Positions 18,001 through 30,000 of a DNA stretch of 64,000 nt are shown here, in pieces (position 1 is the first letter of the stretch; each line of letters starts with the position of its first letter). The position numbers are program-made. This DNA is from an uncultured cyanobacterium (GTDB taxonomy: Bacteria > Cyanobacteriota > Cyanobacteriia > PCC-6307 > Cyanobiaceae): positions 384,001-448,000 of the forward strand of contig CAVONQ010000018.1 of the NCBI GenBank assembly GCA_963697335.1. The letters run 5' to 3'.

Positions 18001-21000
18001 GCCCTCGCCAACGCGGTGCGCTGAAGCCGCGAGCCAGCCGGGACTGGGTCTGCGGCTGGCCACCTCCCTAGCTTGGAGCTCCCTGATTTCGCTGCCCGGT
18101 GCGTTACGAGTGGGTCGAGCAACACGCCGAGGAGGATTGCGGCGCGGCCTGCCTGGCCACAGTGGCCCGCTACCACGGCCGCCGGCTGGCCCTCTCCCGG
18201 GTGCGCGAACTGGTGGGCACGGGGACCCGAGGCACCACCTTGCTGGGCCTGCGGCGGGGAGCCGACGCCGTCGGTTTCCATGCCCGGGCGGTGCGGGCCG
18301 ATGGGGCCCTGCTCGACCGCCTCGAGGCGCTGCCCCTGCCGGCGATCTGTCACTGGCAGGGAAACCACTGGGTGGTGCTGTACGGCCGGAAGGGCCGCAA
18401 GCTGGTGATTGCGGATCCGGCTGTCGGGATCCGCAGGTTGTCACCTGAGGAGTTTCGAGCCGGTTGGGGCAACGGGGTGCTGTTGCTGCTTGAGCCGGAT
18501 CTCAACCGTCTGCTGGAGCAGCCGCAGGAGGAGCGGCTGCCGTTTCTGCGCTTCCTGCGGCTGAGCTGGCCCTACCGGGGTTTGCTGCTGCAGGCCCTTG
18601 GCATCAACGTGGTGATCGGCCTGCTGGCCCTGGCCATGCCGCTGTTGATGCAGCTGCTCACCGATGATGTGCTGGTGCGCCGGGATAGCCAACTGCTCAC
18701 CAGCCTTGGCCTGGCGATGCTGTTTCTGTTTGTCTTTCGCAGCGCCATCAGCCTGATCCAGGGCCACATAGTGGGTCATTTCGCCCAGCGCCTTCAGCTG
18801 GGGATGGTGCTGGAGTACGGCCATCGGCTGCTGCGCTTGCCGATGACCTATTTCGACAGCCATCGCAGTGGCGAGGTGGTGAGCCGGATTGGCGACATCA
18901 GCCGGATTAATGCCCTGATCAGCGATCTGGTGTTGGGCCTGCCCAGTGACTTCTTCATTGCTGCCATCTCGCTGGTGGTGATGCTGATCTACAGCCCTCC
19001 ACTGACGGTCGTGTCCCTGTTGGCGTTTGGAATTTTGATCGCTTCCGGACTGCTATTTCTGCCAGCTCAATACGAAAAAAGCCGCCGCGTGATTGTGGAA
19101 TCCGCGGAGAATCAGGGGTTTCTGGTGGAGATCTTCCGTGGCGCCCAGGTGCTTAAAACCACCGAGGCGTTGCCCCAGGCCTGGGACGAGTACCAGCGCA
19201 ATTTCGGCAGCGTTGCGCACCTGCGTTGGGATGCACTGCAGTTGTCGTTGTTCAGTGGCACCACCACCGGGCTGCTGTCGCGGGTCACCACCCTGGCCCT
19301 CCTCTGGTATGGCAGCAGCTTCGTGATTTCTGGTCAACTCTCCATCGGCCAGTTGCTTGCTTTCAGCGGTATGAGCGGCAATGTGCTCGGTTTTCTGGAA
19401 TCCCTCGTGGACTTCACCGACGACTACCTGACCGCCAACGTGGTGATCAGGCGGCTCTCGGAGGTGCTGGAGGGCAGCCTGGAGGACCCTAAGGCGATCG
19501 ACAAGCCATGGGTGGCCCTGCCGCAGCCGTGCGAGATCCAGTGCCGCAATCTCAGCTTCCACCATGCCGGCCGGCTGGACCTGCTCAGCAACCTTCACCT
19601 CACCATTCCCGCCGCCTGCTGCACCGCCGTGATCGGGGAATCTGGCTGCGGCAAGAGCACCCTGGTGAAGCTGCTGGCCGGCCTCTATCCACCCCAGAGC
19701 GGCTCGATCCACTACGGACCCTACGGCCGTCACGACATCTCCCTGGACTGCCTGCGGCGGCAGGTGGTGCTGGTGCCCCAGGAGGCCCAGTTCTTCAACC
19801 GCACGATCTTCGAGAATTTTCGCTTCGCCTATCCCGACGTCAGCTTCGATCAGGTGGTGGCGGCCTGCGAGCGGGCACTGGCCGACGAATTCATCCGCGA
19901 CCTGCCGGACGGTTACCAGACCGTGCTGGGAGAATTCGGCGCCAACCTCTCGGGTGGTCAGCGCCAGCGCCTGGCGATCGCGCGCGCCCTGGTGTCCTGT
20001 CCGGCCGTGCTGATCCTGGATGAATCCACCGCCGCGTTGGACCCGGTGCTGGAGCGGCGCCTGATGGACAACCTCCTGCAGCATCGCAAGGGTTTGACCA
20101 CGGTGATGATCAGTCACCGCCCGAGCGTCATCCAGCGCTGTGATTGGCTGGTGTACCTGGAGCGAGGCCACGTCGTGTCCCAGGGTCGACCCCAGGACCT
20201 GGGCAACAGTGCACCACTGGCCCCCTACCTGCTGACGGCATGAGCGAGCTTCCCGTCCGGGTGGCTGACGCCACCGAGAGCCAGCAGCTGCGCCCGGCCT
20301 CTGTTCAGGAGTTCCTGCCCTCGGTACGCCCCTGGGTGCGGCTGGCCGGCGTCGTGCTGGTGGGGAGTTTTGTGGCCGGCGTGGCGTTGATGGCGGTGTG
20401 GCCCTACCGAGTGGTGGTCAGAGCAGCAGGGTCTGTGCGGCCCAGTGGCGAGACCAGCCTGGTGCATGCGCCGCGGGATGGGCGGGTGAGGGAGATCCGC
20501 ATCCAGCCCAATCAGGAGGTCGAACGGGGTGAGGTGCTGGCGGTGATGGATCCCGCCGATCTGGAGGGCAGGGAGCTGAAGCTGCGGCAGGGCGGCACAT
20601 CGCTCGATGACCAGCTGGCGGCGCAGCGCAGGGAGAACACGGCTGCACTGCAGGCGGCACGACTGGAGGTCGAGAAGGCCCGGGCCACCCTTGATCTGGC
20701 CCGCTCGGAGTACCAGCGCTACAGCCAGCTCGTCAGCAGCGGTGCCGCCTCCCGGGAGCAGATGGAGGAGAAGCGTGCCAGTCTGAGCGTGGCGTCATCC
20801 AACCTGGCCAAGGCCCAGCGGGATGTGGAGCAGCAGCAGTCCCGGGGCGAGACTGCCCTGGCGAGACTGGGACAGCAACAGGTTGAAAACCAGGCGGAAC
20901 GGGCCCAGCTCGGCCGTGATCTCGGACGCCAGCTGATCAGGGCGCCCGTAGGGGGTGTGATCTTCTCCCTCACCCTCCGCAACCCCCTCCAGGTGGTCAC

Positions 21001-27000: not shown

Positions 27001-30000
27001 CTGAACCTGCTCGATAATGCCGTCAAAAATACTCCCGATGAGGGCTCTGTGGGTGTGCAGGCCCTGACCTTCTCAAGCATGGTGCAGGTCACCCTTCGTG
27101 ACAGCGGCGTCGGCATCCCCTCTGAGCACCTGCCCCATCTGTTTGAACGCTTTTATCGCGTCGAGAAATCCCGTTCACGCGCCTTGGGTGGCACAGGTCT
27201 GGGCCTGGCCATTGCCCAGGAAATCGTCCATCGCCACCACGGCACGATCTCCGTGGCGAGTCAGCCTGGCCTGGGGACGACCTTCACGATCAGATTTCCA
27301 TGTCATCGCGATGCCGCAGCCGATTCCCATGCCCCTCAGCCCAGGCACCGACTGGGATCAGCAGAGTCCAGCTAGCCGCTCCTCCCATGGGCCTGTTCAT
27401 TGCTGCCCTGGCACCGGGGAGGGCCTTGGCGCTGTTGAACGAGCAGCACAGCCAGCAGCCCCAGCCAGCCGATCGCACCCCCCAGTGGGTTGGTGCCTGA
27501 GCCCACACCGCCGGGCCCGGCCCACCAGCCGGGCGCCTCGGCCGACACCGCCAGCAGCCCGCTCTGCACCAGGAACCAGCCGCCCACGAGGCCACCGTGC
27601 AGCGCCGCCGGCCCCCACAGCAGGCCGTTCCCCCCTTGCCTCTCCCGGGCCAGCACCACCCCCAGCAGGATCAGGCCCCCCAGCAGGCTGAATGCCAGGA
27701 GCCCATTCTCCTGATACCAGGGGTGCACCAAGCCAAACACCAGGGCCTGCAGCAGCAGCGCCAGGGGATCCTTCAGCCCCAGCCGCAGTTCACCCCAGAG
27801 CCAGCCGCGAAATAGCAGCTCCTCCGCCAGGCCCACGCCGCAGGCCAGCAGCAGGGCATTCACGAGCAGGCCCCCATCCAACCTGCCCAGCCAGCGGGCC
27901 TGCCCGCTGAGCAGCAGCGCCACGCTCACCAGTGCCAGCAAGGCCAGGGCTTTGGCCAACCCCCTGGCGGCGCTGGCCAGGGCTCGGCGGGGGCTGCAGA
28001 TGAGGCCAAGGGTCCTCCAGGGTCGCGACACCCCCCAGGCGGTGCGCAGACGCCACGGCAGCGTGGCCAGCAGAAGGGCAAAGGAGAGCGACACGCCGGC
28101 CAGGTCCACCTGGTCAGGCCGCCAGCCAGGTGCCAGCCAGCCCAGGGGCCGGGAGAGCAGGAAGCCCACGCCATAGAGCACGGGCACATAGAGCACCGTG
28201 CCCCACCAGCGGGGCATGGGTGCAGGCCCAGCCGGGCCTGGCGCCGCCATCAGGTTTCCGGTTCGAGGCTGCTGGTGAGCCCCTTGCCCTTGAGGGTTTC
28301 GCAGTAGAACTCCGCCGGTTCCAGATCGCAGACGATCACCAGGCCCACGCCGGTGTTGTGGGCCTCCAGCATCACCGCGATCGCGTCCTGCTCACTGAGC
28401 GAGGGCACCACCTGGCGCAGGGTGGTGACCACATAGTCCATCGCGTTGACGGGGTCGTTGTGGAGAAGGACTTTGTAGCGGGGTGATGGCTTGCGCACCC
28501 GCTGCGGGGCCTTCTCCATCACCGCAGCGCCGCCGCCCTCGCGGCCCGGGGCCGCCGTGGCTGTGGTTCGCATGGCTGCCTCCTCGGTCACGACTGCTTT
28601 CACGACTGCCCTATTTAAGGATGGGATCAAAGTCTGCGGATCCGCTGCATGGCCTCATCCACGTTGGCGCGGCTGTTGAAGGCTGAGAGGCGGAAATAGC
28701 CCTCTCCGGCGGCGCCGAAGCCGCTGCCCGGCGTGCCCACCACATGGGCCTGGCTCAGCAGCTTGTCGAAGAAGCCCCACGAATCCAGCCCGGCGGGTGT
28801 CTTGAGCCACACATAGGGCGCCTGCTCGCCGCCATACACCTGCAGGCCCGCCGCCGCCAGCTCGCGCCGGATGATCGCGGCGTTTTCCATGTAGAAGGCC
28901 ACCAGGTCCTTCACCTGGGTCTGCCCCTCGGCGGAATAGACCGCCTCGGCCCCGCGCTGCACGATGTAGCTGACGCCGTTGAACTTGGTGCTCTGGCGCC
29001 GGTTCCAGAGGCCCCAGAGCTCCACGGCTTCGCCGTTGGCCGCCGTGCCCATCAGGCCCCGCGGCACCACCGTGAAGGCGCAGCGGGTGCCGGTGAAGCC
29101 GGCGTTTTTGGAGAAGGAGCGGAACTCGATCGCGCACTCCCGGGCCCCCTCGATCTCGTAGATCGAATGGGGCAGCTCCGGATCCTGAATGAAGGCCTCG
29201 TAGGCGGCGTCGAACAGAATCAGGGCGCCGTGGGCGCGGGCGTAGTCCACCCAGGCCTTGAGCTGTTCCTTGCTGGCCACCGCACCGGTGGGGTTGTTAG
29301 GGAAGCAGAGGTAGATCAGATCCACCGGCTCGTTGGGGATCTGGGCGCTGAAGCCGTTCTCGGCATTGATCGGCAGGTAGGTGAGGCCGCCGTACTGGCC
29401 GCTCTCATCGGCCTCGCCGGTGCGGCCCGCCATCACGTTGCTGTCCACATACACCGGATACACCGGATCGGTCACGGCGATGCGGTTGTCCGGTCCGAGG
29501 ATGTCGAGGATATTGCTGCTGTCGCACTTGGAGCCGTCGGAGACGAAGATCTCCTCGGCGCTCACCTGGCAGCCGCGGGCCTGGAAATCGTGGGCGGCGA
29601 TCGCCTCGCGCAGCCAGCCGTAGCCCTGTTCCGGGCCATAGCCATGGAAGCCCTCGGCGGTGCCCATGGCATCGATCGCCGCCTTCATGGCGCTGCGGCA
29701 GGCCGCCGGCAGCGGTTCGGTGACATCGCCGATGCCGAGGCGGATCAGAGCGGCCCCGGGATGGGCCTCGCCGAAGGCCTTCACCCTCCGGGCGATCTCT
29801 GGAAACAGATACCCCGCCTTGAGCTTGAGGTAGTTGCCGTTGACCTGCACCACAGGGTTGCTGCCGAACTCCAGCGGGCATCCTGCTACGTCAGCTGGCT
29901 GCCGCGTGGCCCCGGGCTGCATACCATCGGCCCAGGCCTGCCCGCGCCCCCATGACCGCCACTCCGACTGTCGTGGCCGCCGCGACCGAGCCGATCGACT

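Follow-up and report, generated by a model that had tools for sequence, protein, structure and literature searches.

Organization of the island

In the 64-kb window, the whole stretch of DNA that was analysed, positions 18099-27375 carry the gene set listed in an earlier note on this DNA (exporter, HlyD, two precursors, fusion enzyme, regulator and sensor kinase, all on the forward strand), and this list was borne out. The first gene (18099..20243, +) encodes a 714-aa C39-peptidase ABC exporter (Pfam Peptidase_C39 2.2e-35, ABC_membrane 2e-36, ABC_tran 1.3e-29), predicted from its domains to cleave a double-glycine leader and export the core; its N-terminus contains EDCGAAC and HWVVL, the motifs in which C39 domains carry their catalytic Cys and His. 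The HlyD-family periplasmic adaptor (HlyD_3 4.5e-22, type_I_hlyD 3.9e-37) was placed at 20240..21385 (+), likelier than the TTG start at 20144 given in the ORF list, since an ATG at 20240 shares the sequence ATGA with the stop codon of the ABC gene. Downstream of the precursor and enzyme genes lie an OmpR-family response regulator (25182..25886, +; Response_reg 1.1e-27, Trans_reg_C 4e-27), whose closest NCBIfam model was cztR_silR_copR with 264 bits, below the cut-off of 279, and a sensor histidine kinase (25912..27375, +) with HAMP, HisKA and HATPase_c domains and two predicted membrane segments, assigned by eye from the sequence.

A CPBP/Rce1-like intramembrane protease (Rce1-like 6.4e-12) is encoded on the opposite strand (27372..28250, -), in a high-G+C flank. 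This family is linked to bacteriocin immunity and a CPBP/Rce1-like neighbour is also present in locus L006; the protein may serve in immunity or may merely be the product of a flanking gene. Among 19 loci examined no other tailoring enzyme was found to be conserved, be it LanC, a flavoprotein or a phosphatase. The lack of a linked phosphatase gene was counted against the phosphorylation reading given below.

Three direct repeats spaced by 11 bp (TCYTRCC-N4) occur at 21528..21556 (+), about 155 nt upstream of the first precursor gene, and a second copy of the triplet is located at 22105..22133 (+), upstream of the second one. Within the window, the two-repeat pattern was found only in these two regions and as a single match at 5228(-), and the same triple repeat precedes the peptide genes in L004, L005 and L006. 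The repeats are putative binding sites of the OmpR-type regulator; a search of 21300-22700 for a sigma-70 consensus promoter gave no match. The gap separating the second precursor gene from the enzyme gene contains a G+C-rich hairpin with UUUUU after it (22572..22609, +), likely a leaky intrinsic terminator. The 97-nt stretch has a folding energy of -43.2 kcal/mol (z -3.09), a value equalled by none of 200 shuffles; a simple terminator scan had missed the hairpin.

Polycationic precursor peptides

Precursor A (21712..21942, +; 76 aa) comprises a 38-aa leader ending in GG and a 38-aa core built of RSRLRSR-type units; its DNA shows 21-nt tandem units, with GAGGAG 6 nt 5' of the ATG. Precursor B (22301..22528, +; 75 aa), with GGAGGA 5' of the ATG, joins a 38-aa leader, also ending in GG, to a 37-aa core of SRPSR-type units. 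The residue counts given earlier were confirmed, with 22 Arg and 9 Ser of 38 in core A, 19 Arg and 10 Ser of 37 in core B, and no Cys in either. A leader HMM matched only these two peptides in the whole 2.58-Mb genome, and the family leader consensus (..L.P.GSELF.DSESFLNEL..EE....GG) is common to 183 peptides from 76 loci of our sample. The R+K fraction is at least 0.32 in 20 of these leader-positive peptides and at most 0.21 in the other 163; the polycationic core type is a discrete class, and Ser is present in all 20 of its cores.

Across 18 loci, with G+C contents of 0.37-0.66, the Arg/Ser frame has been preserved, and both Arg and both Ser codon families are used in it. Lys takes the place of Arg in the cores of L014, L017 and L022, and the other frames of the core region contain stops in several relatives. 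The reading frame is real on these grounds; the earlier case against chance ORFs stood up, through the genome-unique leader matches and the conservation of the frame in distant relatives, and so did the claim of a RiPP-type island with genuine double-glycine, polycationic, Cys-free precursors, which the data support.

A fused member of the LanK/LanY family

The central gene (22672..25164, +) encodes an 830-aa protein in which, as had been proposed, a class-V-type LanK kinase (residues ~1-408) is joined through a linker to a LanY/HopA1-fold domain (~442-822). The reference entry (22669-25164) carries one extra N-terminal residue with respect to the ATG at 22672, and residue numbers from A1, the fold model and the complex model are shifted by +1 relative to the 830-aa numbering of the earlier note. 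Domain searches returned HopA1 at 6e-38, APH at 1.7e-6 and the NCBIfam LxmK model at 3e-24 (85.8 bits against a cut-off of 315), and the match to both chains of PDB 9dk1 was reproduced.

The enzyme is a member of the cyanobacterial LanK/LanY family. It had been stated that 46 of 50 homologues carry both domains, a figure that stems from the length window applied when proteins were searched: among genome contigs the two parts are fused in just 15 of 81 loci, the present one included, the remainder having adjacent K and Y genes. The fusion is not typical of the family and is confined to the clade associated with polycationic cores. In a tree of 84 K+Y rows, built by a quick search and showing long branches and an uneven amino-acid composition for the polycationic clade, 17 of the 18 polycationic loci fell into one 19-row clade (SH-aLRT 99). 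The remaining two rows of this clade, L008 and L015, have no leader-positive peptide; in L008 the enzyme begins 47 bases into the locus and L015 has just ~300 bases of upstream sequence. The tree shows that enzyme clade and core type co-evolve.

An AlphaFold2 model of the enzyme was obtained with a pLDDT of 82 and a pTM of 0.80, and the best Foldseek matches were both LxmKY chains (TM 0.70 for Y, 0.77 for K). Residues 400-640, previously described as unassigned, consist of a disordered linker (409-442 in the model, about 408-441 in the 830-aa numbering) followed by the N-terminal part of the LanY fold, which matches LxmY over 321 alignment columns. The leader-enzyme complex model scored 0.72, the best of three controls 0.00; 116 of 157 solved complexes attain that mark, as do 2 of 215 mismatched pairs, counts that hold only roughly because our own alignments were used. 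Model runs agreed in at least 50% of contacts with a partner pLDDT of at least 45, and placed leader residues 11-31 on enzyme residues 195-203, 291-318 and 369-395. The model lends support, short of proof, to binding of the leader to the kinase C-lobe; the result may partly reflect likeness, since AlphaFold models of the CaoA and LxmA leaders likewise sit on the kinase C-lobe and a kinase-fold/leader complex has been solved (8jsu).

An intact kinase and a degenerate lyase half

The kinase residues K59, E76, H223, D225, N230 and D266 are retained in 19 of 19 clade rows and, wherever covered, in 58 fused database homologues. For the other half, four residues of CaoY (R187, K219, R229 and Y236) have been shown or proposed to perform elimination; K219A abolished and R187A nearly abolished this step, leaving phosphorylated peptide (PMC9486802). 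We mapped this tetrad by alignment to LxmY, to which it aligns at the same spacing (profile alignment E 5.9e-11), and by residue-spacing match to CaoY. The R/K/R/Y set is intact in 56 of 56 family rows outside the clade and complete in 0 of 19 rows within it; the present enzyme has I664/T695/R705/M712. In this mapping three of the four lyase residues are lost and the tetrad is degenerate, so that the phospho-Ser lyase activity earlier deduced from the HopA1 half is not supported, and dehydration by this enzyme becomes less likely.

The 58 fused homologues contain no full tetrad, with the R229 equivalent kept in all of them. Of the 19 clade rows 15 retain the Lys, as do about 40 of these homologues; in the six nearest relatives (P0004-P0009) T, S or A takes its place. 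Among sister enzymes whose core types are nearly identical, L003 has K at this position and the present locus, L002 and L005 have T, Q or D, which we read as relaxed selection. Since the Lys persists in about 40 homologues and the R229 equivalent in all of them, parts of the clade may still eliminate phosphate. The HopA1 half is still conserved (mean identity within the clade 0.44 vs 0.48 for the kinase half) and retains many family-wide invariant residues, so that the active site may have been relocated or may be substrate-assisted.

Charge is also altered in the clade. Residue 365, which is K/R in all 56 other rows, has become E/D in all 19 clade rows; at residue 527, S gives way to E in 18 of the 19, 12 of the 19 have E/D at the position of R187, and the mean net charge of the K part is -16.9 in the clade vs -10.2 elsewhere. 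The (S+T)/(R+K) ratio of eight picocyanobacterial cores is 0.52 +/- 0.07; full phosphorylation would therefore roughly cancel their charge, the computed mean passing from +15.8 to -1.2 +/- 2.5 if each Ser/Thr carries -2. Such cancelling would not be general, since Leptolyngbya-type cores, with Ser only at the two ends, would keep +1 to +12.

Proposed function and alternative readings

The best explanation is that the island is a two-component-regulated system for exported polycationic peptides, derived from a cyanobacterial LanK/LanY (class-V-lanthipeptide-like) system. As to the modification, we tentatively favour, at somewhat less than an even chance, Ser phosphorylation without elimination, then leader cleavage and export; it is likelier than dehydration because the kinase half is intact and the lyase half is without its catalytic residues. 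In the course that we infer, from regulation by the adjacent regulator through phosphorylation and its sites to the role of the HopA1 half and the function of the product, both precursors would be transcribed from their own regulator-dependent promoters, their conserved leader would dock onto the kinase C-lobe, and the kinase would phosphorylate Ser residues scattered through the Arg-rich core. The HopA1-fold half, minus three of four lyase residues, would leave the phosphate uneliminated and be retained as a structural partner of the kinase and probably also to offer it an acidic surface that binds the core; neither LxmK nor LxmY is stable by itself (PMC12141560), so a dead Y half could be kept. 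The C39-ABC/HlyD exporter would cleave after Gly-Gly and export the core. The phosphates would neutralise a peptide otherwise able to bind the producer's own nucleic acids, and could either remain attached to the product or be taken off after export.

We consider it unlikely, although worth weighing, that the enzyme is still a dehydratase yielding exported Arg-rich peptides with several dehydroalanines, through other HopA1-fold residues or with substrate guanidinium groups replacing R187. The match of both halves to the LxmKY dehydratase fold, the invariant R229 equivalent, the conserved HopA1 half and the Lys kept in most clade rows would fit, and the R187 to Glu/Asp change looks less like decay than like an adjustment to a cationic substrate. 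However, the I, T and M that occupy three of the tetrad positions cannot serve as base or enolate stabiliser, the nearest relatives likewise have no Lys, this position varies freely among sister enzymes of the same core type, and the CaoY K219A variant yielded only phosphorylated peptide (PMC9486802).

Export of unmodified peptides, with an enzyme that merely holds or chaperones the precursor or acts elsewhere, appears improbable. No product is known, and many double-glycine bacteriocins are unmodified; such a role would nevertheless leave unexplained the full conservation of the kinase catalytic residues, the tracking of core type by enzyme clade and the Ser in every polycationic core. That G+C-rich DNA gave rise to the Arg/Ser ORFs by chance, or that the true product lies in another frame, can practically be dismissed: the cores have a G+C of 0.77-0.78, and core A read in the +1 frame is Ala-rich with three Cys and a lanthipeptide-like look, but the Arg/Ser frame is retained in L018 at 37% G+C, with synonymous CGN/AGR and AGY/TCN switches, the Lys replacements and the interrupted alternative frames described above, and leader and core form a single ORF with a ribosome-binding site.

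Comparison with known systems

CaoK/CaoY and LxmK/LxmY (PDB 9dk1-9dk3) share with the present enzyme an APH-fold kinase and a HopA1-fold partner, the latter pair being its best PDB match by sequence and fold, and their leaders are modelled on the same C-lobe. They differ in being heterodimers rather than a single polypeptide and in their R/K/R/Y tetrad (I/T/R/M here), whereas the system under study is cyanobacterial, with a double-glycine leader, a C39 exporter, a substrate free of Cys and an island without LanC, LanX or LanD. The cyanobacterial "type-B" putative LanA peptides of LanK-LanY, uncharacterised (Liang et al. 2022, PMC9486802), come from the same phylum and enzyme pair. In that study only ORFs with Cys and Ser/Thr were collected, so that Cys-free Arg-rich cores were excluded by design; its sections 6 and 7 and a term search of the text gave no mention of the fused, tetrad-less clade. 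The LanX/TvaE kinase-fold cyclases of class Va lanthipeptides and thioamitides (PMC12291118) set a precedent, having lost canonical catalytic residues and taken a new role in the same pathway; there, however, an inactive kinase fold became a cyclase, while in the present enzyme it is the lyase fold that has degenerated, next to an intact kinase.

On the export side, the cyanobacterial C39 clusters, as presented in the pertinent portion of Wang et al. 2011 (PMC3140520), also combine C39-ABC, HlyD and a GG leader. Double-glycine bacteriocin systems, to the extent that they are treated there, differ from the present one in core composition. The OmpR-type regulator and the sensor kinase encoded alongside, together with the repeat boxes 5' of the peptide genes, parallel nisin NisRK autoinduction, but the nearest curated families of the regulator are metal-/redox-responsive (CopR/RppA-like, below cut-off). 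Phosphorylated lasso peptides offer a phosphorylated-RiPP parallel. Another is the kinase domain of cyanobactin pathways (PMC12639078). Such phosphorylated RiPPs share the predicted end state of O-phosphorylated Ser on a ribosomal peptide. They involve unrelated kinase families and one or a few sites, against ~10 here, and are not polycationic. Arg (or Lys) alternating with Ser, with charge tuned by Ser phosphorylation, is found in protamines, the RS domains of SR proteins and silaffins, an analogy only, as these proteins are eukaryotic, are not exported RiPPs and are not homologous to the peptides described here.

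Organization and regulation of the island

The island is real and well delimited. On the forward strand it comprises the genes of a C39-peptidase ABC exporter (18099-20243), an HlyD adaptor (20240-21385), whose ATG overlaps the exporter stop codon, precursor A (21712-21942), precursor B (22301-22528), the 830-aa kinase-HopA1 fusion enzyme (22672-25164), an OmpR-type response regulator (25182-25886) and a sensor histidine kinase (25912-27375). The G+C content was 0.54-0.58 across 22000-27400 versus 0.68-0.71 on both sides. The flanks carry housekeeping genes, with CofG (15389-16411; 288 bits, cut-off 209) and a radical-SAM protein identified as the slr0320-type photosystem II high-light acclimation protein (16444-18024; 968 bits, cut-off 775) upstream; on the downstream side lie genes for a CPBP protease and an aminotransferase. 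This gene order is also seen in two of the related loci (designated by L numbers), L004 and L006. The upstream radical-SAM genes were considered as tailoring enzymes and rejected, being conserved flanks that are present in L004 and L006 as well.

The genome amounts to 2.58 Mb in 18 contigs, and a psaA RNA motif (55531-55756, forward strand; Rfam RF01752, 90.5 bits) fits a picocyanobacterium. Among the matches listed, all named relatives of the enzyme belong to cyanobacteria. L004 and L005 are labelled as Bradyrhizobium and Mesorhizobium bins, yet their contigs carry the picocyanobacterial island, L004 together with flanking gene families of the window (radical-SAM protein, aminotransferase), and both enzymes fall within the picocyanobacterial subclade; these bins are probably mislabelled or mixed.

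A pattern search returned three TCYTRCC direct repeats with 11-bp spacing upstream of each precursor gene (21528-21556 and 22105-22133) and one further match elsewhere in the window. The same boxes precede the peptide genes of L004, L005 and L006, loci in which the regulator pair, or its sensor kinase at a minimum, is present: OmpR-type regulator and sensor kinase occur together in the window, L003, L004, L012, L014 and L017, and the sensor kinase occurs without the regulator in L005, L006 and L016. Scans of 21300-22700 for consensus sigma-70 promoters and for terminators gave zero hits each, and the absence of a sigma-70 consensus fits putative activator-dependent promoters. Production would be switched on by the sensor kinase and regulator via the 11-bp repeat boxes. 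RNA folding revealed a strong hairpin followed by a run of U 3' of precursor B (22572-22609, z -3.09), so that transcription of the enzyme and regulator genes would depend on leakage through it. The periplasmic part of the sensor kinase, counted by eye, has about 18 acidic residues to 15 basic ones and is not markedly acidic; sensing of the peptide by this kinase is therefore not claimed. Four copies of CACAGAT (22202-22229) also lie in the long leader region that precedes precursor B.

Precursor peptides and core types

Both precursor genes have a ribosome-binding site, and each peptide starts with a leader of 38 residues that ends in Gly-Gly. Recounting of the cores reproduced the composition reported in the earlier note, namely 22 Arg and 9 Ser of 38 residues in A and 19 Arg and 10 Ser of 37 in B, with no Cys in either. 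The Gly-Gly leaders, together with the neighbouring genes for a C39-domain ABC transporter and its adaptor, point to export of the double-glycine/C39-ABC type, and most loci of the clade described below carry exporter and adaptor genes alongside that of the enzyme.

A leader HMM was seeded with the two precursors and iterated over the small ORFs of 80 of the 486 related genome loci. Among the loci listed, it detected 183 leader-positive peptides, spread over 76 of the 82 sources examined and almost always directly upstream of the enzyme genes, and on the window's own genome it detected precursors A and B only. The Arg+Lys fraction of the cores was bimodal, 20 peptides from 18 loci showing values of at least 0.32 and the remaining 163 values of at most 0.21; Cys was absent from 129 of the 183 sampled cores. 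When the leader (residues 1-40) was searched against a set of 5.8 billion proteins, four clusters were returned in all, the query included. The three relatives of precursor A (P0063, P0064 and P0065) have near-identical leaders and differ in the number of whole RSRLRSR-type units, giving cores of about 33 to 42 residues, which suggests that repeats are gained and lost at the 21-nt DNA units.

Another core type occurs on the same leader. Proline-rich RPFPT-like repeats, as in ...RPFPTRPFPTRPFPTKPFPT..., are encoded in L034 (15020-15244), L064 (12633-12839), L027 (12531-12779) and L074 (15035-15268). L022 (9596-9775) and L041 (9598-9780) encode Lys/Ser-rich cores with a Cys at each end, such as GGSCYGGSKSKSKKSK...KKYC.

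Enzyme family, fold and phylogeny

A length-restricted protein search gave 59 matches, 58 of which (P0004-P0061) are close full-length relatives, both Pfam domains being present in 56 of them. A genome scan located 486 stretches encoding relatives, and the 80 loci examined and the window made a set of 81, in which the enzyme is a single ORF in 15 and is encoded elsewhere by adjacent K (kinase, about 400 aa) and Y (lyase, about 370 aa) genes. A metagenome scan with a single protein as query added one relative, L082. The window enzyme possesses the catalytic residues of an APH-fold class V LanK kinase (K59, E76, H223, D225, K227, N230 and D266), scores 85.8 bits with the NCBIfam LxmK model, below its cut-off of 315, and matches the LanY-type Pfam HopA1 domain at 6e-38. 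Its AlphaFold2 model (pLDDT 82, pTM 0.80) shows a kinase domain joined to a Y domain by a disordered linker (409-442 of the 831-residue reference, one ahead of the 830-aa numbering), and the top Foldseek matches were both chains of the lexapeptide dehydratase LxmKY (TM 0.70 for Y over 321 columns, TM 0.77 for K). On the basis of the model and these matches, the stretch left unassigned in the earlier note comprises the linker and the N-terminal portion of the LanY fold.

When K and Y were concatenated into 84 rows, the resulting tree contained a 19-row clade (SH-aLRT 99) with 17 of the 18 polycationic loci and all 15 fused enzymes; the four other members of the clade are split. The two clade rows beyond these 17 loci, L008 and L015, have no leader-positive peptide; the L008 enzyme begins 47 bases into its locus, and L015 offers some 300 bases upstream. 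The eighteenth polycationic locus, L022, whose Lys/Ser core has two Cys, lies at the base of the other group. The enzymes of L022 and L041 are split, both placed at the base of the non-polycationic group, and keep the lyase Lys in an incomplete set of catalytic residues (N/K/R/Q and Y/K/R/Y). The tree came from a quick search. Because branches in the clade are long and its amino-acid composition is unusual, its internal order is unreliable.

Degeneration of the lyase and remodelling of the clade

In the class V lyase CaoY, elimination of phosphate is abolished by K219A, nearly so by R187A and impaired by R229Q, and Y236 is the counterpart of the SpvC tyrosine that aids removal of the alpha-proton (PMC9486802). 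A profile of 14 Nostoc-type Y proteins matched LxmY at E 5.9e-11 and aligned Arg, Lys, Arg and Tyr at a spacing identical to that of CaoY. At these four positions the window enzyme has I664, T695, R705 and M712. The earlier description of the protein as a class V dehydratase-like fusion holds for the kinase and the HopA1 fold; the equivalents of R187, K219 and Y236 are lost and that of R229 alone is kept.

Loss of the complete tetrad extends to the whole clade. The full R/K/R/Y tetrad occurs in 56/56 rows outside it (a set that leaves out seven second-copy pairs, L022 and L041), in 0/19 clade rows and in 0/58 fused database homologues. By position, the clade retains the first Arg in 2/19 rows, Lys in 15/19, the second Arg in 19/19 and Tyr in 2/19; the second Arg is also present in all 58 fused homologues. 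The six closest relatives of the window enzyme have Thr, Ser or Ala in place of Lys. Sister enzymes with nearly the same cores vary at this position: L003 has K, and the window, L002 and L005 have T, Q or D. Such variation suggests that selection no longer acts on the site in this subclade. In the kinase half, K59, E76, H223, D225, N230 and D266 are conserved in 19/19 clade rows and K227 in 18/19, with Arg in L011. Alignment thus points to a lyase half that has lost its catalytic residues beside an intact kinase.

Judging from the alignments, the clade is remodelled, beyond mere decay, with acidic residues at several positions where other family members have basic or neutral ones. Residue 365 is K/R in 56/56 other rows and E/D in 19/19 clade rows, residue 527 has changed from S to E in 18/19, residue 172 is D in 17/19 and the R187 equivalent is E/D in 12/19. 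The mean net charge of the kinase part is -16.9 in the clade versus -10.2 elsewhere. Conservation within the clade is somewhat lower for the HopA1 part than for the kinase part (0.44 vs 0.48), and equal in the rest of the family (0.67 vs 0.65). LxmK and LxmY are each described as unstable without the partner (PMC12141560), which would give a reason for retaining a silent Y domain and fusing it to the kinase.

A second K-Y pair is found at about 12.7-15.8 kb in seven Nostocales loci (L020, L026, L040, L048, L049, L055 and L059). Catalytic residues are missing from both halves of these pairs (D to N and N to K in the kinase; E, L and K at the lyase positions), which adjoin leader-positive peptides ending in SLLLCN or similar. 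By analogy with LanX, they may be non-catalytic or cyclase-like relatives.

Leader binding and proposed modification

When the enzyme was modelled in complex with precursor A, the score was 0.72, against 0.00 for the best of three controls; the score mark is reached by 116/157 solved complexes and 2/215 mismatched pairs, counts which are rough since own alignments were used. At least 50% of contacts agreed between runs, and the partner had a pLDDT of at least 45, its own fold being uncertain. In the 831-residue numbering, leader residues 11-31 contact residues 195-203, 291-318 and 369-395 of the kinase C-lobe, and the model supports binding, short of demonstrating it. Comparable docking has been modelled for the leaders of CaoA and LxmA, and 8jsu, seen among the Foldseek matches, is a solved kinase-fold protein with its leader, so the pass may reflect likeness to these.

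With an intact kinase, missing lyase residues and no other tailoring enzyme, we tentatively favour, at slightly less than even confidence, a reading in which the core serines are phosphorylated without elimination, followed by Gly-Gly cleavage and export. A scan of 11 window proteins and of 108 proteins encoded near the enzyme in 19 related loci returned no LanC, LanX or LanD, and no LanC, flavoprotein or phosphatase was conserved. In eight picocyanobacterial cores the Ser/Thr to Arg/Lys ratio is 0.52 +/- 0.07, and full phosphorylation would shift their computed mean net charge from +15.8 to -1.2 +/- 2.5. Such a shift is consistent with phosphates masking the charge of a peptide that would otherwise bind the producer's nucleic acids, the match being a numerical coincidence and not evidence for phosphate; the relation fails for Leptolyngbya-type cores, which have serines at both ends and would keep +1 to +12.

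It is conceivable, though rather doubtful, that the product is a novel RiPP, an arginine run interleaved with about ten phosphoserines, made by a kinase with a former lyase as acidic silent holder. If so, one Ser per two Arg would leave the peptide near-neutral and safe to make and export, and extracellular phosphatases stripping the phosphate would turn it into a protamine-like polycation; alternatively, it could be a zwitterionic, silaffin-like peptide assembling with polyanions or minerals.

That the enzyme still dehydrates its substrate, as its HopA1 fold and the second Arg might allow, is improbable given the loss of the other tetrad residues. Even less credit is given to peptides exported unmodified, a reading at odds with the conserved kinase residues and with the way the enzyme clade follows the core type. 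Part of the probability is assigned to no reading. That the Arg/Ser ORFs arose by chance, a worry raised in the earlier note for G+C-rich DNA, or that another frame is the real one, is practically excluded by a frame conserved in loci with G+C from 0.37 to 0.66, the use of CGN and AGR codons for Arg and of AGY and TCN for Ser, the replacement of Arg by Lys in three loci, and stops interrupting the other two frames in several relatives.

Comparison with known systems

To our knowledge, the LanK/LanY machinery has so far been studied only as the dehydratase of actinobacterial lanthipeptides. If the favoured reading of phosphorylation without elimination is true, cyanobacteria have put this machinery to another use, and the enzyme represents a clear natural case of a lyase retained as the non-catalytic partner of a kinase. 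It would also suggest that abundant picocyanobacteria of fresh and coastal waters export peptides that are heavily phosphorylated or polycationic and could serve in antagonism, signalling or surface chemistry.

Precedent for repurposed, catalytically altered members of this enzyme set is provided by the LanX/TvaE kinase-fold cyclases, as described in PMC12291118, and phosphorylation of RiPPs is called rare in the abstract of PMC12639078. In the open-access library searched, nothing was found that deals with LanK/LanY systems of cyanobacteria that are fused or Arg-rich. Liang et al. 2022 (PMC9486802) noted uncharacterised cyanobacterial type-B peptides encoded beside LanK-LanY and collected only Cys-containing ORFs. 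Genome mining that requires Cys would miss most of the family, as the majority of the sampled cores lack it. Compared by description, the peptides studied here fit type-B LanA in phylum and gene context and differ in lacking the Cys that those authors required.

As to the class V lanthipeptide system, leader recognition and phosphorylation appear alike in the present enzyme, judging from its residues and models, whereas three defining features, the lyase residues, the core Cys and the cyclase, are missing. The island represents a branch of the LanK/LanY family of cyanobacteria in which the cores are polycationic and free of Cys, the enzyme is fused and its lyase is degenerate.
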